Shown here in pieces: positions 37,736 through 53,776 of a stretch of 64,000 nucleotides of DNA (positions are counted from its first letter, which is position 1; the number at the start of each line of letters is the position of its first letter). The translations under genes and the position numbers were made by a program. A model generated the notes under the pieces. That model had not been told where the DNA came from and made no database searches. It worked only from the letters and a program-made list of their open reading frames with translations. Source of the stretch: a virus; the IMG/VR virus record IMGVR_UViG_3300013005_003552, positions 80,266 to 144,265 of that record; one strand, written 5' to 3'.

Positions 37736-38088
37736 TAACCAGTCTTACAGGCACCGCTGGAGTGACAATATACGGAGGATTAAGTCCTCCGTATATTAAC
37801 ATGACACAGCCCAGCGCAGGTATGGTGCGCTACAATGGTTCCAGTCAGCTCATGGAGGTGTACGATGGTACTGTTTGGTTACAGATGGGAAGTCATCCTA
37901 CCATACAACTGGATGCCCGTGTGCAAGAAATATTGTACTGGGCAGAAAAGAAAATGCGTGAGGATCAAGAACTAGAAAAGCGCATGGAGCAGCATCCGGG
38001 TCTTAGAGATGCCTATGAAAAATTCAAGGTAATGGATGTTCTCACACAAGAGAATGATAATAAAAAAGGAATCTATACCCGTGCTTGA
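37732..38088 (+). CDS. Hypothetical protein
   Basis: GMVRYN..MEVYDG.VW; ATGA coupling. Confidence 0.7.
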   Translation: MITSLTGTAGVTIYGGLSPPYINMTQPSAGMVRYNGSSQLMEVYDGTVWLQMGSHPTIQLDARVQEILYWAEKKMREDQELEKRMEQHPGLRDAYEKFKVMDVLTQENDNKKGIYTRA

Positions 38089-39673
38089 ACAAGACAATCT
38101 AACTGCCAAGCAAAGCGACTATGCTGTGTTCTTGCCGGCTATTTCAGGATTCTATGCAACCTTTATAGGAAAACAGCGTGTTAACAATGACTATGTTGAT
38201 CCTGCTCGTATGCCTGCGGGCATGCAGGACATGGAACAGATGAACTGGTTGAACAGCCAAAAAAGTTTGTTTCCTTATCGGTGGAGTCTTTATTCAGGCG
38301 GTCACGCTAATCTCAATCTTGACAAGGATGATGCCAGCGAAGACATGGTTCGCAAGCGTGAGCCAGGTACATTCATGCTTGGTGACTCTGGTGGATTCCA
38401 GATTGCCAAAGGCCTATGGGAAGGTGACTGGAAGGCCAATTCGGGTTGTGCCAAAGCACAAAAGAAGCGAGACGCAATTCTCAAATGGCTCGACGGTATC
38501 GCTGACTATGGCATGATCCTAGATATTCCAACCTGGGTCATTCACGACAAGAAGGCCAGTGCAGCCTGTCAGATTACCACGCTGGAAGAAGCAGTAGACG
38601 CTACCAAGTTCAATAATGATTATTTCATGCAGCACAGAAAAGGCAAACGCAATGGTGGTGCCAAGTTCTTGAATGTGCTACAAGGTGACAATCATGCCAG
38701 TGCCGAAGAATGGTACCAGATCATGAAACACTACTGTGATCCTGTTCAGTATCCCGACACGCATTTTGACGGGTGGGCCATGGGCGGACAGAACATGTGT
38801 GATGTGCATCTTGTGCTCAGACGCTTGGTGGCTTTGCGACATGACAATTTACTACAAGAAGGTGTGCATGACTGGATGCATTTCTTGGGTACCAGTAAAC
38901 TTGAATGGGCACTGTTACTCACTGACATACAAAGAGCAATTAGAAAATATGTTAACCCTGCTTTTACCATTAGTTTTGATTGTGCAAGCCCGTTTCTTGC
39001 CACTGCCAACGGGCAGATGTATCATCAGATAGATTTGCCGCATAATGACAAATGGTGTTATCGCATGGGGCCCAGCGCAGACGATAAAAAGTATGCTCTG
39101 GACACCAGACCGTTCAAGGATGTGGTTCTAGCAGACAAGGTGTTCAATCACTTTGACGAAAGTCCTATCAGTCAACATCTTCAGATCAAGGATGTGTGCA
39201 TATACAAACCCGGCGATTTGAACAAAATTGGCAAGGAAGGCAAGACCTCATGGGACAGTTTCAGCTATGCACTCATGATGGGTCATAATGTTTGGATGCA
39301 CATTGAAGCTGTGCAGAGAGCCAATCGTGAATATGATTCAGGCACTTGGCCCAACATGCTGTGGAATCAAGGCACCAAAGGTCGTACTGGCGATCATGCA
39401 AAATTTAGAGACATTGTTGATGCTATATTTGCTACCAGTGACAAACAAGAAAGTTTAGACATTATCGAGCACTACAGTAGATATTGGATGGATATCATTG
39501 GCACTCGCGGTTTCAAAGGCGACAAAACCATGAATGCTCATAGTCAATTTAATTCACTGTTTGAATTTGTAGAACCAGAGGCTGAGGAGACCGAACGCGA
39601 TGAGAAAATGGCAGAAGATGCAGCAGAAGATCGACTTGAACAACTTGCAAGAATCGAACGAGGAGGAGACTGA
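38081..39673 (+). CDS. dpdA: TGT-fold 7-deazaguanine DNA transglycosylase (DpdA-like)
   Basis: GDSGGFQI, LDIP, VLQG, GWAMGG, HFLG, SFDCASP in TGT order; clustered with folE/queD/queE. Confidence 0.8.
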   Translation: MLEQDNLTAKQSDYAVFLPAISGFYATFIGKQRVNNDYVDPARMPAGMQDMEQMNWLNSQKSLFPYRWSLYSGGHANLNLDKDDASEDMVRKREPGTFMLGDSGGFQIAKGLWEGDWKANSGCAKAQKKRDAILKWLDGIADYGMILDIPTWVIHDKKASAACQITTLEEAVDATKFNNDYFMQHRKGKRNGGAKFLNVLQGDNHASAEEWYQIMKHYCDPVQYPDTHFDGWAMGGQNMCDVHLVLRRLVALRHDNLLQEGVHDWMHFLGTSKLEWALLLTDIQRAIRKYVNPAFTISFDCASPFLATANGQMYHQIDLPHNDKWCYRMGPSADDKKYALDTRPFKDVVLADKVFNHFDESPISQHLQIKDVCIYKPGDLNKIGKEGKTSWDSFSYALMMGHNVWMHIEAVQRANREYDSGTWPNMLWNQGTKGRTGDHAKFRDIVDAIFATSDKQESLDIIEHYSRYWMDIIGTRGFKGDKTMNAHSQFNSLFEFVEPEAEETERDEKMAEDAAEDRLEQLARIERGGD

Positions 39674-40918: not shown

Positions 40919-41067
40919 CCTGCGAAACCTGTGGCAAAGACTACTCCCCAGCCTGTGACTTTCAGCAAGGTCGCTGTCCGTTGCATCCACCCATGTGGAA
41001 CTTGACACCATATCATTTTCGCTATCTCACACTTGTCAACACTATCAAAGGTTGGTTTCGCTCATGA
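40915..41067 (+). CDS. Small Cys-rich (Zn-binding?) protein (50 aa, not in ORF track)
   Basis: CETC..C..CPLH; ATGA overlaps on both sides. Confidence 0.6.
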   Translation: MTCETCGKDYSPACDFQQGRCPLHPPMWNLTPYHFRYLTLVNTIKGWFRS

Positions 41068-41504
41068 ATACACAAATGGACAGATCACAAACAGACATAA
41101 ACAGTGAAGTTGCAGATCGCATGATATGGGTGCGTTTTGAAAAAGAGGGTATTCATAAATATCCAGCAGCACTGGAGGATCCTAAACTTGCGGATGTATC
41201 TTTTCTTGGCTTTCCTCATCGCCATATTTTTCACTTCCGGGTGTCAATCAGTGTGTTCCATAATGACAGGGACATCGAATTCATCCAGTTCAAACGATGG
41301 CTGGAGAGTCTGTATAGCGATTCCACTCTAGAACTCAATTATAAATCCTGCGAGATGATTGCAGACGACTTATATATCCAAATTAACTTGCGTTACCCCG
41401 GCAGGCATGTTATTATCTCAGTTAGCGAAGACGACGAAAACGGTTGCGAAATTGTTTATCGAGATCCCCGCACCCCAGAAAAAACTTTTTACCATCCAGT
41501 ATAA
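41064..41504 (+). CDS. dpdL: QueD-paralogous T-fold protein, DpdL-like (putative CDG decarboxylase)
   Basis: LGFPHRHIF (LxxxHRHxF in place of QueD CxxxHGH), SCEMIA, VSEDDENG. Confidence 0.7.
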   Translation: MNTQMDRSQTDINSEVADRMIWVRFEKEGIHKYPAALEDPKLADVSFLGFPHRHIFHFRVSISVFHNDRDIEFIQFKRWLESLYSDSTLELNYKSCEMIADDLYIQINLRYPGRHVIISVSEDDENGCEIVYRDPRTPEKTFYHPV

Positions 41505-43346: not shown

Positions 43347-44391
43347 ACCAGTGAACCCAGAACATGAACATCTAATCGAGGTACTAAAGTTCACTCCGCG
43401 TACTTACAAAATCCAGCTATGGGGTTACGGCGGTGAGTACGCCATGGGCACTGTGGACCGAAACATATATGATTACTTTCGTAGGCGTAGATTGAGCGTG
43501 GCTGATTTTGCCTGGGACAGTGACTATGCTGAAACTCATAACATACCAGAATCCATGTGGCCATTTGTTCCAGGATCTTGGTATGAATGCGAAAACATGG
43601 GACATGTGTACGGAGTAGACCGAGCATCTGGCACCATGCAGATTTTGGATGAAAATGGCGAAGTGGTGTATGAACGCAGCTTGGAAGAACTTGATGGTTG
43701 TGATGTAGAGCTTAACACTCGCGACGAAATTTGGATTGATAGTCAACCCAAAGATACTGTTGTATTTTTTGGTTACACCGCTGACAAAGGAACCTTCTTT
43801 GAAGCTGACATAGAGCTTGGTGCTCCTTTTGATCCAGAAAAACTATGCTTGGTTATTGATGATTTTGATTCAAATGAGATCATCACAGGTGCAGAGTACG
43901 ATGGCGAAGAACTGTGCAACGACGGCGGAGATACCAATGGCAAAGGATCTGATTTTGCATTCTACATTGCAGGCAGTAACAAAGGCCAGGGCTATGAGAG
44001 ATATCGCGACATGGACGATATCAAATACAATCTTACCAATTGGTTTCCTAGCAAAATCAAGCCTGTAGTTGCAGGTATATATGAAGTGGAAGCCAAACAA
44101 GGACATATCTATCATGCTGTGTGGTCTGGCGAGTTCTGGCACAATGAATGGAGTGATACAAAAGAACCATTGAAAATCAAGCAATGGCGAGGCATCGCCT
44201 ATGATCCAGACGAGCAATTTCTTCGTGATGAGTTAGATCAAATATACTTGTCGCTTGTTGTTGAAGACCAAGATGCTGAAGTACTAAATTGCGAACATTG
44301 CGGCTGGAGCGGCAGTGCCAACAACACCAATGACTGGGATGGCCAAATGTGTTGCCCTGACTGTGGCGAACCTGTACAATCTATCAATTGA
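43315..44391 (+). CDS. Acidic hypothetical protein with C-terminal Zn ribbon
   Basis: Asp/Glu-rich; CEHC..CPDC. Confidence 0.7.
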   Translation: MAKKSDQNTAEPVNPEHEHLIEVLKFTPRTYKIQLWGYGGEYAMGTVDRNIYDYFRRRRLSVADFAWDSDYAETHNIPESMWPFVPGSWYECENMGHVYGVDRASGTMQILDENGEVVYERSLEELDGCDVELNTRDEIWIDSQPKDTVVFFGYTADKGTFFEADIELGAPFDPEKLCLVIDDFDSNEIITGAEYDGEELCNDGGDTNGKGSDFAFYIAGSNKGQGYERYRDMDDIKYNLTNWFPSKIKPVVAGIYEVEAKQGHIYHAVWSGEFWHNEWSDTKEPLKIKQWRGIAYDPDEQFLRDELDQIYLSLVVEDQDAEVLNCEHCGWSGSANNTNDWDGQMCCPDCGEPVQSIN

Positions 44392-44401
44392 GAAAAATAA
44401 A

Positions 44402-45382
44402 ATGATCAAAGTATTTGTTACAGGAGCAACTGGCTATATTGGTAGCCATGTATGCAAGAAATTAAAAGAAGATGGCTATGAAGTAATTGGTCTTGACCGT
44501 GTGCGCAGAGAACACACCCTGCAATACATGGATCAATTTATAGAAGCAGACTATCATAGTCAAACCTGCATTGATGCACTGGTGCAGCATGCACCCCAAG
44601 CAGTTATTCATCTAGCAGGTACTAGTCTAGTAGGACCCAGTGTGAGTGATCCTGGCGAATACTATACAAACAATGTGGCCAAGACTGCTGCATTGCTAAA
44701 TGCCATACGGTTTCTAGAACACATGCCAGTGGTAGTTTTTTCTAGCAGTGCCGCGGTGTATGGTGCACCAGAAAAAGACCTGATACACGAAAACGATCCT
44801 TATAGCCCACTGAGTCCATATGGACAAAGCAAGGCCATGATTGAAATCATGCTAACGGATTTTTTCAAGGCCTACGGCATGTGCAGTGCCAGTCTGCGTT
44901 ACTTCAATGCCTGTGGTGCTGACGAGTCTGGAACTCTTGGTCAAGCACCTGGTGCAACACACATTGTGGCTAGATTATTAGAAAGTGCTAGAGATAAAAC
45001 AAAATTTACTCTTTACGGTAATGATTATAATACCGCAGATGGTACTTGTGTGAGAGATTATGTGCATGTGAGTGATCTAGCCTCGGCTCATAGCCTAGCA
45101 GTGTCGTACCTAATGAGCGATATGGATCCTTGCTTTGCTCTAAATCTTGGCACAGGCCAAGGATACAGCAATCAAGAAGTCATTGACACAGTTATCCAAA
45201 CTGTTGGGTCTGTTGACATTTCTGTTGGCCCACGACGAGCCGGAGATCCTGATCAACTGGTAGCAGGAAATGTGTTAGCCAAAGCAAAACTAGGTTGGCA
45301 TCCAGAAAACTCTAATTTGTCCAATATTGTAACTTCTGCATGGAAGTGGTATAATAACCCATCAAATCAAGTTGACAACTGA
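44402..45382 (+). CDS. galE: UDP-glucose 4-epimerase
   Basis: TGATGYIGSH, FSSSAAVYG, YGQSK, LRYFNACG, DGTCVRDYVHV. Confidence 0.92.
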   Translation: MIKVFVTGATGYIGSHVCKKLKEDGYEVIGLDRVRREHTLQYMDQFIEADYHSQTCIDALVQHAPQAVIHLAGTSLVGPSVSDPGEYYTNNVAKTAALLNAIRFLEHMPVVVFSSSAAVYGAPEKDLIHENDPYSPLSPYGQSKAMIEIMLTDFFKAYGMCSASLRYFNACGADESGTLGQAPGATHIVARLLESARDKTKFTLYGNDYNTADGTCVRDYVHVSDLASAHSLAVSYLMSDMDPCFALNLGTGQGYSNQEVIDTVIQTVGSVDISVGPRRAGDPDQLVAGNVLAKAKLGWHPENSNLSNIVTSAWKWYNNPSNQVDN

Positions 45383-45400
45383 TCTAAATAAGTTTACAAT
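45372..45400 (+). promoter_or_regulatory. sigma70 promoter with nested TAAATA
   Basis: TTGACA-ACTGATCTAAATAAGTT-TACAAT. Confidence 0.75.
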
Positions 45401-45407
45401 ACACAAC

Positions 45408-45434
45408 TAGCCATCCTCGGCTATAACTCGGAGA
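45408..45434 (+). promoter_or_regulatory. folE leader hairpin / mini-pseudoknot over the RBS
   Basis: TAGCC-ATCCTC-GGCTA-TAACTC-GGAGA; loop TCC complementary to SD GGA. Confidence 0.45.
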
Positions 45435-45438
45435 GCAA

Positions 45439-46206
45439 ATGGTTTACAACAAAGCATACATTAGCAATGACGAAGAAACCGCACTAGACGCCATGGCAGG
45501 CGATGGCGGTTATGCCCTGGGGCAAGCACACAAACAGATTGCAGCAAAAATGCGCCGTGAAGGCAAGCGATTCTGGGCAGGCGATAACATCAGCGACTAT
45601 GTTGACGATAAGGCCAAAGAACAACTGATTGACGAAGCGCGAGCTGCATTTGAACTTGTGCTAGACACACTGCTAATTGATCGACACAATGATCCTAACA
45701 GCCACGGCACAGCACAACGCTTGGCCAAGATGTATTACAACGAAATAATGGCAGGACGATATGAATCAGCACCAGACGCAACAGCATTCCCAAACAACAC
45801 CACAGACCGATACGAAGGTATGCTGGTTGTGCGTTCTGAGTTACGCAGTATGTGTAGTCATCACCATCAGCCTGTCAGTGGCGTTGCTTATATTGGAATT
45901 ATCGCTGCCGAAAAACTAATTGGTCTGTCTAAGTATACTCGTATTGCTCAGTGGTGTGCTCGTCGTGGCACTCTCCAGGAGGAACTGGCCAATGACATTG
46001 CTAGGGAGATCAGCCGAGCCACCGGAAGCAAAAATGTAGGTGTTTACATACAGGCCACGCATGATTGCTGTGAGAATCGCGGCATCATGGCACACAGTTC
46101 ATTGACCCAGACCACTGTGCTGACAGGTGCATTCAAAGACGATCACAGTGTGAAGAAAGAGTTCATGGACAATATTAAACTACAGCAAGAATTTGCTCCG
46201 AGGTAA
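45439..46206 (+). CDS. folE: GTP cyclohydrolase I
   Basis: SMCSHHHQP, IGLSK..R, R..LQE, HDCCENRG. Confidence 0.95.
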   Translation: MVYNKAYISNDEETALDAMAGDGGYALGQAHKQIAAKMRREGKRFWAGDNISDYVDDKAKEQLIDEARAAFELVLDTLLIDRHNDPNSHGTAQRLAKMYYNEIMAGRYESAPDATAFPNNTTDRYEGMLVVRSELRSMCSHHHQPVSGVAYIGIIAAEKLIGLSKYTRIAQWCARRGTLQEELANDIAREISRATGSKNVGVYIQATHDCCENRGIMAHSSLTQTTVLTGAFKDDHSVKKEFMDNIKLQQEFAPR

Positions 46207-46818: not shown

Positions 46819-47358
46819 ATGAGTGCAGTACGAGAAAAAGATTCTGCAGATTTTGATCTAGAAGCGTTTGTTGACTTGTTTGACGAAGCACTGACCAGTG
46901 ATGATCCCAGTGTTCAAAAAACTCTACAGCATCTCATGGTTATCTGTGCGCTAGCTCGTAATCATGCTAGACACGATTCTCGTAACGGCCCATTGCGAAG
47001 ACTGTTTGAAGATATAAAACATCTTAATTCAAGATTAAACAATCTAGAGAGTCAACGTGGCATGCATCATCCTGGCTACGGTCCTGTTCCGCCAACTAAC
47101 CCAACTATCTGGCCACCTGTTGTTACTCAGCCAGGAACAGCTAGCCCAAATTGGCCAGGCCCAAATCAAATCTGGTGCGGCACTGACACCACCGCTGTCT
47201 GGTGCGGCACTGACACCACCGCTGTCAGCGTGAGTTTGCCTGAGAACAGTGCAGTTGCTCAAAGTGTAAGTGCAACTATTGCAGAGCGAGTGGATGATCT
47301 GTTAAAATCAAACTACAAAGGCTCCAGTGTTGGGACTGTAAATGTTAAAATTGCTTGA
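46819..47358 (+). CDS. Hypothetical protein with low-complexity tail
   Basis: MSAVREK..; contains a 27-bp duplication. Confidence 0.7.
   Translation: MSAVREKDSADFDLEAFVDLFDEALTSDDPSVQKTLQHLMVICALARNHARHDSRNGPLRRLFEDIKHLNSRLNNLESQRGMHHPGYGPVPPTNPTIWPPVVTQPGTASPNWPGPNQIWCGTDTTAVWCGTDTTAVSVSLPENSAVAQSVSATIAERVDDLLKSNYKGSSVGTVNVKIA
47171..47226 (+). repeat. Perfect 27-bp in-frame tandem duplication
   Basis: TCTGGTGCGGCACTGACACCACCGCTG x2 (WCGTDTTAV x2). Confidence 0.95.
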
Positions 47359-47812
47359 ACGACTAGGTAGAAAACGCATTATCAACGATAGGCTCAACGA
47401 TGAGCCATATCTTGAACGCTATTATCTTTTTCTTAAAGAAAGAAAGAAATTTCCGTTCAATGTATTTTTACACAAGTTCTTAAAAGGAGACCCAGACGAT
47501 GTACATGATCACCCATGGCCGTATTGCACTTTCATACTTGCGGGAGGTTACTACGAGTGGATTCCGGAGTTTAATGACTCAGGTACCAAGGTCAGTGAAA
47601 CACGGCATTGGCGTGGGCCTGGCCATTTCCGCTTTTGCAGGGCTGGTAGCTTTCATCGTATTGAACTTAAAGATGGTGTAACTGCATGGACTTTATTCAT
47701 GCCAGGACCTCATCAACGAGAATGGGGATTTTTAATAGGACAAGATCCAAACAAAGATTGGGAACACAATGAAAGTTATCTCACCCGGCGTGGTGGCACT
47801 AAAGCCGTTTAA
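47342..47812 (+). CDS. Cupin-like hypothetical protein
   Basis: LH..D..HDHPW..GGYYE..FHRI..WTLF..REWGF. Confidence 0.75.
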   Translation: MLKLLERLGRKRIINDRLNDEPYLERYYLFLKERKKFPFNVFLHKFLKGDPDDVHDHPWPYCTFILAGGYYEWIPEFNDSGTKVSETRHWRGPGHFRFCRAGSFHRIELKDGVTAWTLFMPGPHQREWGFLIGQDPNKDWEHNESYLTRRGGTKAV

Positions 47813-48104: not shown

Positions 48105-48660
48105 CAAAATTGTAACTATTGATCAAACACAGTTGAACGGATACATTCACAGTATCATGCGTCAAATGGCTGCTGACAATTGGCGTCCAGACTATATTGT
48201 GGGTATCACTCGAGGAGGTCTTGTGCCTGCTGTGATGATCAGCCAATATCTAGACATTCCCATGCACACCTTAAACATCAGCTTTCGCGATGCAGAGCTA
48301 GGGCCTGAAAGCAATCTCTGGATGGCAGAGGATGCATTTGGGTATGTGCCCACAGATGTTGCGCCTAGACCAGCAAACATGACTGTGTCTGATCCTGCAC
48401 TGCGCAAGAAGATTCTTATTGTAGACGATATCAATGACACTGGTCGCACACTACGCTGGATCAAAGAAGACTGGGAATCAGGTTGTTTGCCTAGAGATGA
48501 AACCTGGAACGATATCTGGCATCACAATGTACAATTTGCCACTGTGGTGGACAACGACTCAAGTGAATTTAAGGGTGTTGACTACGCTGGACTAATTATT
48601 AACAAACATGAAGACCCTTGCTGGATTGAATTCCCTTGGGAGAATTGGTGGGCAAAATGA
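48091..48660 (+). CDS. Type I purine phosphoribosyltransferase (Gpt-like)
   Basis: VGITRGGLVPA, ILIVDDINDTGRT, WIEFPWE. Confidence 0.88.
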   Translation: MTSPNKIVTIDQTQLNGYIHSIMRQMAADNWRPDYIVGITRGGLVPAVMISQYLDIPMHTLNISFRDAELGPESNLWMAEDAFGYVPTDVAPRPANMTVSDPALRKKILIVDDINDTGRTLRWIKEDWESGCLPRDETWNDIWHHNVQFATVVDNDSSEFKGVDYAGLIINKHEDPCWIEFPWENWWAK

Positions 48661-49148
48661 TTAATGGCAAAAAAGTAGGATTTACCGCAAGCACATTTGA
48701 TTTACTACATGCAGGGCATGTGGCCATGTTGCGCGAAGCAAAAGAACACTGTGAATATCTTATCTGTGCTTTACAAAATGATCCTACACTGGATCGTCCT
48801 AGTAAAAATAAACCTGTTCAAAGCATAGTTGAAAGACAGCTACAATTGGCAGCATGCAAGTATGTTGATGAAGTTTGGGTATATAACACAGAAAAAGACC
48901 TAGAAGATCTTTTACTAATTCTTCCCATAAATGTGAGAATCTTGGGAGTCGAGTACGAAGGCAAAGAATTCACCGGCAGAGAAATTTGCCACAAGCGCGG
49001 AATTGAATTGTTCTTTAACGGCCGTGATCACAGTTTTAGTTCTAGCGAACTGCGTCAACGAGTGGCTAATGCAGAAGAATTTAAGAAAAAGTTGCAAGCA
49101 TTTGAACCAGTAGGATCAGATGACACTGGAGGCCCTAGTGAGAAATAA
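48657..49148 (+). CDS. Cytidylyltransferase (TagD/RfaE-like)
   Basis: TFDLLHAGH, KP..ER..ACKYVD, SSSELR. Confidence 0.88.
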   Translation: MINGKKVGFTASTFDLLHAGHVAMLREAKEHCEYLICALQNDPTLDRPSKNKPVQSIVERQLQLAACKYVDEVWVYNTEKDLEDLLLILPINVRILGVEYEGKEFTGREICHKRGIELFFNGRDHSFSSSELRQRVANAEEFKKKLQAFEPVGSDDTGGPSEK

Positions 49149-49156
49149 ATACAAGC

Positions 49157-49333
49157 ATGTGGACTCTAGTGATAATGCTACACGCTGTTTCGCCCAATGT
49201 GCCCCCGTCCAAAGGGTCAATAACCTTTATGACTCAAAATTTTGAAGAATGTCAAAAAGTAAGAGACACACTAACAAGATCATGGGCGTCAGACCGTTAT
49301 CGCGTTACTGCAAACTGCATTTTTATCAAATAA
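49157..49333 (+). CDS. Small hypothetical protein (58 aa, not in ORF track)
   Basis: ATG 5 nt after TAAATA; MWTLVIML, two Cys. Confidence 0.55.
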   Translation: MWTLVIMLHAVSPNVPPSKGSITFMTQNFEECQKVRDTLTRSWASDRYRVTANCIFIK

Positions 49334-49341
49334 ATCAACCC

Positions 49342-49406
49342 AGCGGTCTTTGGCATCACTCCCGCTATACAAACTCTGCTGCCTATGCTATAATCTAACA
49401 TAGGAG
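49342..49406 (+). ncRNA. Candidate preQ1-I-like riboswitch / structured leader of queD
   Basis: P1 AGCGG/CCGCT, loop with GGCA, tail ATACAAAC, TGCC partner, SD-occluding CCTATG/CATAGG. Confidence 0.4.
49366..49394 (+). promoter_or_regulatory. Extended -10 sigma70 promoter for queD
   Basis: TATACA-17bp-TATAAT with TGn extension. Confidence 0.55.
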
Positions 49407-49413
49407 AAAACAC

Positions 49414-49959
49414 ATGGCAAGAAATTTTTCAACAAAAACTTACGGTAACGATCGCGGCTATTCCTGCTGCTTCAGACAGTGGAAGGCCACTCATAGTCAT
49501 TGCAGTTTGATGCATGGCTATAGTTTAGGTTTCCGTTTTGTGTTTGAAGCCGAGCAACTAGACGAACGCAATTGGGTGCAAGACTTTGGTGGCTTAAAAG
49601 AAATCAAGGCCTGGTTGGACACACAGTTTGATCATACCACGGTGATCGCAGAAGATGATCCTCTACTGGATCGTTTCAAACAAATGGCAGGTTGGAGTCG
49701 CATGGCCGAAGTTGACGGCAAACCAGATGAAGTTCAGAAAAGTCCATACCATAATCAAGGTGTAATTGATTTGCGTATTGTGCCTGCTGTGGGATGCGAA
49801 GCATTTGCAGAATTTGTTTACAAACATGTTGCACAATGGCTAGCCGCTGACCCAACCAACAAGTATCAAAATTTGCTAGGCGACGAACATCAGCGAGTAA
49901 AATTGGTGAGTGCTGAAGTGTTTGAACATTCAGGTAACAGTGCTATCTACGAAGGATAA
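49414..49959 (+). CDS. queD: 6-carboxy-5,6,7,8-tetrahydropterin synthase
   Basis: HCSLMHGY, WVQDFGGLK, FDH, GCE.FAE, VFEH. Confidence 0.88.
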   Translation: MARNFSTKTYGNDRGYSCCFRQWKATHSHCSLMHGYSLGFRFVFEAEQLDERNWVQDFGGLKEIKAWLDTQFDHTTVIAEDDPLLDRFKQMAGWSRMAEVDGKPDEVQKSPYHNQGVIDLRIVPAVGCEAFAEFVYKHVAQWLAADPTNKYQNLLGDEHQRVKLVSAEVFEHSGNSAIYEG

Positions 49960-49961
49960 CT

Positions 49962-50414
49962 ATGACAATTCACGACGAACGCATCTTTACAAATATCGCT
50001 TATGAACGCAGTGAAGCTGGTCCAGCTGCGCCCTGGGATGATACAGTAAGACAAGACTTTCATGTAGCAGTGTTTAACGATCGTTATCCATGCACACCAG
50101 GTCATTTGTTATTTGTACCACAACAGAATAGCAAGCATGTGTTACGAGATGCGTTTGTTGATGCATTTGATCATGGAAAACAAAAAGTAGATACAGGAGA
50201 ATGGGATGGTTTCAACATCGGACTTAATTATGGCGAAGCTGCGGGACAAACTGTGCCATGGCCTCATATCCATCTTATACCCCGTAGAAAAGGCGATGTA
50301 CCGGACCCGGTGGGCGGCGTACGAAATACGATTCCGGGCAAGGGCAACTATCGAAAGACACCAGCGCCAATCCGCACCCTAACCGGCGACAGTGAAGGCG
50401 GAGACATAGATTAA
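49962..50414 (+). CDS. HIT-family nucleotide hydrolase
   Basis: YPCTPGHLLFVP, GFNIG.N.GEAAGQTV, HIHLIPR. Confidence 0.9.
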   Translation: MTIHDERIFTNIAYERSEAGPAAPWDDTVRQDFHVAVFNDRYPCTPGHLLFVPQQNSKHVLRDAFVDAFDHGKQKVDTGEWDGFNIGLNYGEAAGQTVPWPHIHLIPRRKGDVPDPVGGVRNTIPGKGNYRKTPAPIRTLTGDSEGGDID

Positions 50415-51283
50415 TGATAATTGTAACAGGTGATCGCGGATTTATAGGCAGCGAACTAAAGAAACAACTTGTGAATAATGGTCACAATGTTCATAGTCTT
50501 GACTGGGCTGATCGTGGCAAAACTTGGGATACTGGTGGCGATTCAATTGAATGGATCTTTCACATGGGCGCTATTAGTGAAACCAATGTGTTTGATTGGA
50601 ATGCCTTGGTTAGAAAAAACATAGAAGACACACAGGCATGGATTCGTTTTGCCAACGAACACGGCTGCGGCATTACCTATGCCTCAAGTGCTAGTGTGTA
50701 CGGCCCGTGGAGCAACAGCCCCGAATGGGGGCCTTTTCAGCCTCAGCACCACTACGGCGTGAGCAAGATAACCATTGACATGTGGTGCGCTGAGCAACAG
50801 TTCAAGGTGCCGGTACAAGGCATGAGATTTTTTAATGTGTACGGTCGCAACGAAGGTCACAAAAACCAACCTAGTCCTATTCGTAGATACATTGAGAGTG
50901 CTATAACCAGTCGTAAACTAACTGTCTGGCATCATGAAGGACGATTAGGATCTAGAGATTTTATCAGTGTGGATGACTGTATCAATGGTATGCTAGCCTT
51001 AAAAAACACAGGTACTAGTGGAGTGTATAATATTGGCACCGGCAAGCAGTTGACCTTTGAAGACATTGCCAGACTAATACAAAAACATGTGGGCATGGAC
51101 AATGCGCAGATCCATATCACACCCATGCCAGACGAGATGGTGCCAAAATATCAGTGGGAAAGTTGCGCTAACCTAAATAAACTATTGACAGTGATCCCAG
51201 ACTGGAATCCAGATACGGTTGAGCAATGGCTCGACAAAAACTTTGAAACTCTATACAATAAAATTCGTGAGGAAATTCTATGA
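50414..51283 (+). CDS. NAD-dependent sugar epimerase (HldD/RfaD-like)
   Basis: IIVTGDRGFIGS, FHMGAIS, YASSASVYG, YGVSK, RFFNVYG.NEGHK. Confidence 0.85.
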   Translation: MIIVTGDRGFIGSELKKQLVNNGHNVHSLDWADRGKTWDTGGDSIEWIFHMGAISETNVFDWNALVRKNIEDTQAWIRFANEHGCGITYASSASVYGPWSNSPEWGPFQPQHHYGVSKITIDMWCAEQQFKVPVQGMRFFNVYGRNEGHKNQPSPIRRYIESAITSRKLTVWHHEGRLGSRDFISVDDCINGMLALKNTGTSGVYNIGTGKQLTFEDIARLIQKHVGMDNAQIHITPMPDEMVPKYQWESCANLNKLLTVIPDWNPDTVEQWLDKNFETLYNKIREEIL

Positions 51284-52173
51284 AACTAAAAGTTAGTGAA
51301 ATCTTTTATAGCACACAAGGCGAGGGTAGATATGTTGGTGTACCCAGCGTGTTTCTGCGTACATTTGGATGTAATTTTACCTGTGGCGGATTTGGAATGC
51401 CCAGAGGTGAAGTGAGTGTAGAACGAGATTCTGTAGACTCAGACAAATACAAGTCATTTGCAGATTTGCCACTGGTACACACCGGCTGCGACAGCTATGC
51501 CAGCTGGGATCCGCGTTTCAAAGATTTTAGTCCCACCAAGGATATTGATACACTGGTGAATGAACTACTGGTTCTTACTCCAAACGGTCGTTGGCAACAG
51601 TACACCGGTAATCCTGTGCATCTTGTGATCACGGGCGGCGAGCCATTGCTGGGCTGGCAACGAGTGTATCCAGAACTACTGGAACATTCGCGCATGCTGG
51701 ATCTTGATTACATAACTTTTGAAACCAATGGTACTCAGCCGTTGAGTCCTGATTTTCAAAATTATATTGAAAAGTGGCACACCACCTGGCGTGGTACTAA
51801 CGAGTCAGATCACGATCAGTTTGTTGGTCGCTGGCGTGAAATGCAATTCAGTGTAAGCCCAAAACTCAGTGCCAGTGGCGAAAAATGGGAAGACGCTATC
51901 AGGCCAGAAGTAGTGCTGGAATATCAACAGTTTGGTTACACATATCTAAAATTTGTAGTTGCAAGCAAGGAAGACTTTGACGAAGTACAAAAAGCAGTTG
52001 GCGAATATCGTCGGGCAGGATTCATGGGGCAAGTTTATGTTATGCCTGTTGGAGGAACAACTGAGTTGTACGAGAAAAACAAATTATTTGTTGCCGAAGA
52101 AGCACTGAAACTAGGGTATATTTACAGTCCAAGACTTCATGTGGATCTTTGGGGCAACGGTTGGGGCAAATAA
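51280..52173 (+). CDS. queE: 7-carboxy-7-deazaguanine synthase (radical SAM)
   Basis: EIFYSTQGEG..FLR.FGC, TGGEPL, ETNG, SPKL, PRLH. Confidence 0.92.
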   Translation: MKLKVSEIFYSTQGEGRYVGVPSVFLRTFGCNFTCGGFGMPRGEVSVERDSVDSDKYKSFADLPLVHTGCDSYASWDPRFKDFSPTKDIDTLVNELLVLTPNGRWQQYTGNPVHLVITGGEPLLGWQRVYPELLEHSRMLDLDYITFETNGTQPLSPDFQNYIEKWHTTWRGTNESDHDQFVGRWREMQFSVSPKLSASGEKWEDAIRPEVVLEYQQFGYTYLKFVVASKEDFDEVQKAVGEYRRAGFMGQVYVMPVGGTTELYEKNKLFVAEEALKLGYIYSPRLHVDLWGNGWGK

Positions 52174-52606: not shown

Positions 52607-53776
52607 ATGACCCATATATGTAGCGCAAAAATTTTTAACATTTCCAAAAAAGTAAAAGATTCCTACTTTGTTTTTCTCACAAGAGATCTCGAGTGGGTTG
52701 AGAGAAACACACCAGATCAAAAAACGCCTTTTGTGCCCACTGGCGCATGGGGAGAGCCATGGCTAGAATATGATCCTGTGTTCATGCAACGATTGGCACG
52801 GTTTATTAAATCCTATCCCAACGATTATGTTAACTCTCAAGGAACCATGTGGTATGAAATCAGCAATGCCCATGAATTTTTCTTAGAGTGGCTGCGTTCA
52901 GGCCAACTTGAAAAGGCGCATGAGCATCTCAATCTCATGCATCAAAGTCCGTTGTTGATTGGCATCAGCCAAGGCGATGTTGAAACTTACTATCTTCAAA
53001 CCTACCCAGACGCAAGTTATATAAGGTTACTGCGACACTATGATGTGTTGCTGGGAGTTATGGAATACTTAGGTATCATTGGTCCGCAAAATCACGAACA
53101 AGGAACTTCATTTGTAGCAGTATCTGCTGATACTCTGCTAGATAACTCTCCCAAGGTTATTGTTGCACCCAAATGGCAGGGTGGATTATGGGGCATTCAA
53201 ACTTCCCGTGGTCTGTTCAGTGATCGAGATCTCATGGCCTTGTATATCGCCTTAAAAGTAAAAAGCAAATATCCCATAGAATCTCGCATCGTGGAAATAG
53301 GCGGAGGAGCTGGTCAGGTGGCCTACTGGTTGTATCAGCTGGGGTATAGAAATATTTTCATGGTGGATTTGCCAGGCGTGGCTGCATGTCAAGCCTATCA
53401 GTTGGCAGCCAACATCGGCGCAGAGAATGTGAGTTTTGCATACGAAAACCTTGACACCGCTGTTAAATTCCTAACACCATCTCAACTCAAGCATCGTGTG
53501 GATAGATTCAATTTGGTAATCAATTCAGACAGCATGCCCGAAATGGACAAAGAATCCTTAAATGGCTATTTGGAATTTATTGCCAACAATTCGGATTCTT
53601 TTTTCAGCATCAATCAAGAAGCCAGATCCACATCTTTTAACATGAATCCGCAACATGTTGTACACCGTGTAATCAAAAAAGAATTTGCAGATAAATTTAC
53701 CCGAATTGATCGCAGTAAATTTTGGTTACGGGACGGGTACACTGAAGAATGGTATTTCACCAATAAAACGGGCTAG
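52607..53776 (+). CDS. Putative sugar O-methyltransferase
   Basis: IVEIGGGAG, VDLP, INSDSMPEM, FFSINQE. Confidence 0.7.
   Translation: MTHICSAKIFNISKKVKDSYFVFLTRDLEWVERNTPDQKTPFVPTGAWGEPWLEYDPVFMQRLARFIKSYPNDYVNSQGTMWYEISNAHEFFLEWLRSGQLEKAHEHLNLMHQSPLLIGISQGDVETYYLQTYPDASYIRLLRHYDVLLGVMEYLGIIGPQNHEQGTSFVAVSADTLLDNSPKVIVAPKWQGGLWGIQTSRGLFSDRDLMALYIALKVKSKYPIESRIVEIGGGAGQVAYWLYQLGYRNIFMVDLPGVAACQAYQLAANIGAENVSFAYENLDTAVKFLTPSQLKHRVDRFNLVINSDSMPEMDKESLNGYLEFIANNSDSFFSINQEARSTSFNMNPQHVVHRVIKKEFADKFTRIDRSKFWLRDGYTEEWYFTNKTG

Follow-up and report, generated by a model that had tools for sequence, protein, structure and literature searches.

A pseudoknot in the leader of phage queD-like genes as a candidate ON riboswitch with a preQ1-I-like layout

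Introduction

The locus considered here raises the question of whether a phage gene of the 7-deazaguanine pathway is governed by a structured RNA in its own leader and, if so, whether that RNA is a riboswitch, how it relates to known families and what it might sense. The locus lies in a stretch of 64,000 nt (the window), positions 80,266 to 144,265 of IMG/VR virus record IMGVR_UViG_3300013005_003552. A first-pass annotation of this DNA had proposed that a variant of the preQ1-I riboswitch stands upstream of queD, on the basis of a 5-bp stem AGCGG/CCGCU (P1), a loop running from U to C and an A-rich tail, all of which are indeed present where they had been placed.

Results

Architecture of the leader

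The leader and the gene that follows it are made up of the following parts (SD, Shine-Dalgarno sequence).

49342-49346, + strand: 5′ strand of P1, AGCGG, partner 49362-49366
49347-49351, + strand: L1, UCUUU (from alignment A4 and the instance list)
49352-49355, + strand: 5′ strand of P2, GGCA, partner 49380-49383
49356-49361, + strand: L2, UCACUC, conserved form UCA(N1-3)C
49362-49366, + strand: 3′ strand of P1 (P1′), CCGCU, pairs with AGCGG
49367-49379, + strand: L3, AUACAAACUCUGC, an A-rich stretch, then UCUG (49375-49378), then a 1-nt spacer
49380-49383, + strand: 3′ strand of P2 (P2′), UGCC, doubling as the start of the anti-SD strand
49382-49404, + strand: SD-sequestering hairpin, CCUAUG (49382-49387), loop CUAUAAUCUAA, CAUAGG (49399-49404)
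49402-49406, + strand: SD, AGGAG, 7 nt ahead of the start codon at 49414
49366-49394, + strand: sigma-70-like promoter, -35 TATACA (49366-49371), 17-nt spacer, TGc, -10 TATAAT (49389-49394)
49414-49959, + strand: QueD-like PTPS-family protein, 181 aa, with CxxxHGY (Pfam PF01242, 5.7e-15; PHROG 2389 QueD-like, 2e-38)

The strands of P1 are separated by a 15-nt loop, UCUUUGGCAUCACUC (49347-49361), whose first base is U and whose last base is C, and the tail AUACAAAC starts at 49367. The complementarity that had been claimed between GGCA of the loop and UGCC of the tail is confirmed in the sequence, and the pairing in P1 and P2 supports the preQ1-I-like layout of an H-type pseudoknot. The hairpin said to bury the SD is likewise there, with its 3′ arm at 49399-49404; CCUAUG shares two bases with UGCC, and AGG of the SD lies within CAUAGG. 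The window has one match to the motif pattern, where 100 shuffles gave an expectation of 0.00, and no second copy is present in the 144-kb virus record, whose completeness is estimated at 39%. A covariance model scores 43.6 bits at this site (E ~1e-9), the window itself being among the seed sequences of the model. Since the folding energy of the leader alone is unremarkable (z = -0.88), the case for a leader RNA rests on comparative data.

Distribution of the motif

Relatives were collected in two ways, via the QueD-like protein alone and via DNA motif patterns. The closest clades found through the protein alone have the same element directly upstream of the gene, and the element is absent from the upstream regions of more distant PTPS genes. 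Two tight DNA patterns gave at least 120 matches each in viral contigs, against 6 for a control pattern with other P1′ sequences, five of them by chance and the sixth a degenerate copy. At least 302 motif instances were gathered from viral and metagenome loci, with at least 173 distinct cores and at least 154 instances that include an SD and a start codon. The motif is about 45 nt long and sits directly ahead of a PTPS/QueD-like gene, the complete downstream ORFs being Pfam PTPS in 140 of 140 cases among the matches listed; genes for FolE, QueE-like, nucleotidyltransferase and HIT proteins recur nearby in the relatives.

The motif is essentially absent from prokaryotes: across one genome for each of 185,579 species, a pattern covering most of the phage instances found 44 sites, about the number expected by chance, and P1 is present at only one of these. 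That site (L542), with the full motif, is on an 8,050-bp contig (CAZXGO010000106.1) of a Chitinophagales metagenome-assembled genome (MAG); the contig probably stems from a phage and was binned with the MAG, and it could be a hint to the host. Nothing among 50,697 phage records matched the leader region in a blastn search, and no description of the motif was found in open-access papers and bioRxiv preprints on phage, queD, 6-pyruvoyl or 7-deazaguanine riboswitches.

Several loci (L003:2325-3543, L004/L005 and L225-L227) have tandem PTPS paralogues. The first of the pair has the motif ahead of it and is about 38% identical to the QueD-like protein of the window, and the second, with a promoter-like site of its own, is 69-73% identical to it.

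Covariation and conserved loops

Covariation across phage queD leaders, which had been set beforehand as a test, was found in both helices. In the relatives found via the protein alone, P1 shows 100% pairing, two of its pairs covary (G-C/C-G and A-U/C-G), and it occurs as AGCGG/CCGCU, ACCGG/CCGGU or AGAGG/CCUCU, a variety limited to three forms that we count against a riboswitch of the ON type. In the larger set P1 was fixed by the search patterns, leaving P2 as the only informative helix there. In a fixed register (100 sequences of alignment A4, columns 19-22 with 53-56, among the matches listed), P2 is 80.5% paired, all four of its pairs covary with both sides changing, and pair 22-53 alone is AU in 30, UA in 21, GC in 15 and CG in 13 sequences. 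Sliding the partner lowers pairing to 29-57%, and none of 500 shuffles reaches the observed score; where cells are unpaired, the cause is mostly a bulged A or a shift of the register by one base. In contrast to this fixed-register count, a search left free to choose the best helix between loop and tail failed to discriminate when partners were shuffled among the instances, since GGC/GCC is common to most of them.

The unpaired parts are conserved as well, with about 12 such positions kept within the 45-nt RNA. L1 varies from 4 to 9 nt, and its first base may be U, C or A and its second is almost always C. Among the protein-found relatives, UCA..C of L2 does not vary, nor do A31, A35 and T37-G40 of L3 (numbering of the first sequence). 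L3 is 12-13 nt long and consists of an A-rich part, an invariant YUCUG and a spacer. One role that UCUG might have is to lengthen P2 by a pair between C49357 and G49378. The C at the end of L2 (49361), adjoining P1′, is invariant in alignments A1 and A4; since the searches demanded UCUG and this C, their invariance is partly a matter of ascertainment and holds within the searchable set.

P2 and the expression platform have a strand in common

The competition that had been proposed between P2 and the SD hairpin is supported by the window and by its relatives. In the window P1 has an energy of -5.6 kcal/mol and the SD hairpin one of -5.7 kcal/mol, and the energy of the hairpin becomes +0.5 kcal/mol once P2 has claimed its two C's. 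Among the matches listed, the minimum-energy platform fold has at least one base of P2′ paired to the SD/AUG region in 152/154 instances, and three or all four of its bases pair with the SD/start-codon region in 119. P2′ sits 15-40 nt upstream of the SD. The platforms themselves are of at least four unrelated designs: CCUAUG/CAUAGG as in the window, GUGUCUU/AGGAGACA, UGCCAUUG/CAAUGGCA and UGUCAUC/GAUGGCA. At the two positions of the SD-hairpin arms that the searches left free, all 12 changes seen among 123 relatives (of the matches listed) give U·G or G·U and never a mismatch, and are thus wobble-compatible on the sense strand. In some members of the clade with AGAGG in P1, the anti-SD pairing is weak. 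Because P2′ is also the anti-SD strand, closing the knot would remove that strand, and the wiring is predicted to be that of an ON switch.

A putative promoter embedded in the platform

The extended -10 promoter that had been noticed in the loop of the SD hairpin is present (TGcTATAAT) and conserved. Among the matches listed, 110/122 relatives with the platform of the window have at least five of six matches to TATAAT after TGc, these same relatives carry TATACA or TTTACA 17-18 nt upstream of the -10, and the conserved portion of the hairpin loop is exactly the -10 hexamer. We infer that the embedded promoter is real and would give transcripts that begin at about 49400-49402 and escape the switch. 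With a near-consensus promoter inside the platform, much of the queD mRNA may therefore lack the element. A scan of the instances found few strong promoters directly upstream of the motif, and most instances are therefore intercistronic. In contigs from four lake metatranscriptome runs, 48932-49064 and 49427-49789 are covered at 100% identity; these RNA-library contigs span the upstream gene and the queD coding region, with the leader outside them, and carry-over of DNA is possible.

Between the upstream gene and the motif of the window lies a 190-nt stretch (49149-49341) that holds a 58-aa ORF (49157-49333), for which no homologue was found in 153 related loci. In the closest relative (L001), 4 nt separate the upstream stop codon from the motif.

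Such a promoter also allows the conservation to be read at the level of DNA alone, the TATACA-17-TGcTATAAT promoter and interleaved inverted repeats then serving as operator sites for a regulator. The extended -10 and its -35-like hexamer, conserved in most relatives with this platform, would fit this reading, as would P1, which is an inverted repeat abutting the -35 hexamer, and the mismatches in P2, where G·U (20) does not exceed A·C (24), so that the RNA strand is not favored. Nevertheless, the AGAGG clade, in which UAAAGA replaces UACAAA in L3, keeps P1, P2, L2, L3 and UCUG yet has no -10 site downstream. It is also difficult to see operator sites in a P2 position that takes four types of pair, in a P2′ strand complementary to the SD or the AUG in four different designs, in hairpin arms whose free positions change by wobble on the sense strand, and in an element that is always on the strand of the gene and whose spacing from the start codon is fixed. 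We therefore regard a purely DNA-level explanation as very improbable.

Relation to preQ1-I and other known RNAs

In preQ1-I riboswitches, the cytosine that pairs with the ligand stands at the 3′ end of L2 (C17 in Bacillus subtilis, C15 in Thermoanaerobacter tengcongensis), the first base of L1 is a conserved U (U6), and L3, in the solved structures, is A-rich, about 6-9 nt long and runs straight into P2′. The phage element resembles the preQ1-I RNAs of B. subtilis queC and of T. tengcongensis in being a small H-type pseudoknot whose P1 has 5 bp and closing G-C pairs, in having a conserved C (here C49361) as the last base of L2, beside P1′, an L3 that opens with an A-rich run and a short P2 joining the loop to the 3′ tail, and in its position ahead of a gene of the 7-deazaguanine pathway. 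Membership in the Rfam PreQ1 family (RF00522) was nevertheless not borne out. Neither the window nor any of 18 related loci reached the threshold of an Rfam 15 family, and RF00522 had no match at E<=10 over 49100-49500 and none in a relative (L009). The best score is a local one of 12.4 bits on another relative (L028), against a gathering threshold of 39; this alignment spans P1, L1, the end of L2 and the start of L3, and it places the C of L2 on the conserved UCCC of the PreQ1 consensus.

It could be that the element is a divergent but true preQ1-I member which binds host-made preQ1 or preQ0 and differs in its expression platform alone. A P1 that ends in GG/CC, the C before P1′, an L3 starting with WUA.AAA, the short P2, the nature of the downstream gene and the local RF00522 match all speak for this. 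However, the score is far under the threshold, the 12-13 nt of L3 contain an invariant UCUG insert, and L1 is longer than in preQ1-I, with a first base that is not conserved. In addition, the motif is restricted to phages without a true QueC. The preQ1-I examples are repressed by their ligand, by direct occlusion of the ribosome-binding site in T. tengcongensis and by a terminator in B. subtilis (PMC10907184), whereas in the phage element P2′ is the anti-SD strand and ON regulation is predicted. A true preQ1-I member thus seems an improbable, though not the least probable, explanation and, as judged from the sequences, the element falls outside preQ1-I on its score, on the length and insert of L3, on the first base of L1 and on its presumed regulatory logic.

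The SAM-II and SAM-V riboswitches are likewise compact pseudoknot aptamers with translational control (PMC10907184), a mode of control that is also predicted for the phage element. They differ from it in being repressed by the ligand and in having the ribosome-binding site within P2; there is no sequence relationship, and the Rfam searches of the window and the 18 loci gave no match to them.

The pathway around queD

Four further genes of the window bear on the role of the QueD-like protein.

38036-39673, + strand: divergent TGT-fold protein, 545 aa (AlphaFold/Foldseek)
40995-41504, + strand: DpdL-like ORF, 169 aa, with LGFPHRH (PHROG 17812, function unknown)
45439-46206, strand not given: FolE, neighboring gene
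51280-52173, strand not given: QueE-like radical SAM gene, neighboring gene

Other neighbors encode purine phosphoribosyltransferase-like, heptose-1-phosphate adenylyltransferase-like, HIT and ADP-heptose-epimerase-like proteins. A gene search of the window did not find QueC, in keeping with the earlier observation, and Pfam gave for QueC in the motif-bearing phages just weak partial PP-loop matches (PF06508). With true QueC absent, preQ0 and preQ1 would not be products of the phage pathway, and no route to them is visible in the phage gene set.

The 545-aa protein has no match in Pfam, PHROG, NCBIfam or PDB sequences. Its AlphaFold model (19 homologues; pLDDT 84, pTM 0.83) matches tRNA-guanine transglycosylase (Foldseek E = 4.5e-8), its family has an invariant LGDSGGFQ, and homologues are present in 25/28 motif-bearing phage records, with an insertion or in-frame stop interrupting some of them. 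The protein is probably a DNA transglycosylase of a divergent DpdA-like type, and the Pfam TGT search (PF01702), which returned nothing in the 28 motif-bearing phage records, is by the model a false negative. LGFPHRH of the 169-aa ORF fits LxxxHRH, the signature proposed for the CDG decarboxylase DpdL (PMC10516641). By analogy, the pathway is similar to those of the QueC-less DpdA/FolE/QueD/QueE/DpdL type, by which 7-deazaguanine is put into DNA. It shares with the type of Cellulophaga phage phiST (PMC10516641) the genes for FolE, QueD-like, QueE-like, LxxxHRH DpdL-like and TGT-fold proteins and the lack of QueC, and differs from it in the CxxxHGY motif of QueD, in a TGT-fold protein that escapes Pfam and in the presence of sugar-nucleotide genes among the others. 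That paper makes no mention of a riboswitch.

The motif CxxxHGY, in place of CxxxHGH of QueD, is invariant in the 140 PTPS sequences behind the motif (alignment A3, among the matches listed), and the score for the NCBIfam QueD equivalog is 32 bits, where the cut-off is 89; going by sequence, the PTPS enzyme behind the motif may not be a canonical CPH4 synthase. The sugar-nucleotide genes interleaved with those for 7-deazaguanine lie at 44315-45382, 48636-49148, 50414-51283 and 52607-53776, and the products listed are GalE-like epimerase, heptose-1-P adenylyltransferase-like, ADP-heptose epimerase-like and sugar O-methyltransferase-like; a cysteine-dioxygenase-like ORF is at 47342-47812. For folE there is a separate promoter-like site, TTGACA-17-TACAAT (45372-45400), followed ahead of the SD by a small AGCC/GGCU hairpin (45409-45422), and the model of the queD leader gave no match in the folE leader (45372-45438).

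Discussion

We have little doubt that the RNA pseudoknot at 49342-49383 is real, and it is likely that queD translation is controlled in cis through the strand that the knot shares with the platform. The leader combines features by which riboswitches are generally recognized, namely a structured leader RNA, an association with one gene class, covariation, and an expression platform sharing a strand with the putative aptamer. Our preferred explanation, to which we give a probability of about 0.6, is that of an ON riboswitch, in which a ligand would stabilize the knot and switch queD translation ON. The proposed mechanism starts from an H-type pseudoknot with a 5-bp P1, a 4-bp P2 and conserved unpaired bases in the queD-like leader. 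Since the strand pairing with the SD begins, at its 5′ end, with the 3′ strand of P2, UGCC could be held either in P2 or in the SD pairing, and the two states of the RNA would be mutually exclusive. With the knot open, the SD hairpin CCUAUG/CAUAGG would be closed and translation off; with the knot closed, UGCC would be held in P2, and the hairpin would lose two G-C pairs and fall apart, leaving the SD free. The switch would be carried only by transcripts that start upstream, the embedded promoter giving short, unregulated ones.

The partner of the knot is probably a small molecule, which would present a guanine-like face to the invariant C; it might be guanine, 7-deazaguanine, CDG, preQ0/preQ1 or else a pterin, for example H2NTP or CPH4. 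One point that speaks against an ON riboswitch is that a biosynthetic gene under ON regulation would offer no obvious ligand. The same point could be taken to favor a real pseudoknot that regulates queD translation with a protein as its partner, or with none: a phage or host RNA-binding protein might bind it, an enzyme of the pathway might regulate its own synthesis, or a kinetic or thermal switch might separate read-through from promoter-proximal transcripts. The structure and the anti-SD wiring need no small molecule by themselves, and the embedded promoter would suit a device that silences translation on long transcripts only. Still, the dozen or so conserved unpaired positions in 45 nt are the usual mark of a metabolite pocket, the invariant C stands at the place where preQ1-I reads its ligand and falls within the local Rfam PreQ1 match, and the link with a single enzyme family, seen throughout the matches listed, is typical of riboswitches. 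A pseudoknot that works with a protein or without any partner is, in our judgment, unlikely, if somewhat less so than a true preQ1-I member.

For the ON riboswitch, a more specific version can be put forward, tentatively and at somewhat less than even odds: the element may represent a phage-only ON class, preQ1-I-derived or convergent, that controls DNA hypermodification rather than tRNA queuosine. In one form of it, the RNA would sense free guanine, 7-deazaguanine or CDG. The DpdA-like transglycosylase would free guanine from DNA, the neighboring phosphoribosyltransferase would salvage it, and rising guanine would signal a demand for more QueD, with the internal promoter providing a second, unregulated class of transcripts.

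The motif belongs to uncultured freshwater jumbo phages only, where it has well over 100 distinct representatives. If a ligand is confirmed, the element would constitute either a novel riboswitch class or a strongly altered form of preQ1-I and, unlike the ligand-repressed examples (PMC10907184), a relative of the preQ1-I fold that is activated by its ligand. A 45-nt aptamer of the ON type would then also be a compact tool for synthetic biology. For the phages themselves, it would be a metabolite sensor tied to DNA hypermodification, and the identity of its ligand would show which intermediate is the control point of the QueC-less pathways.
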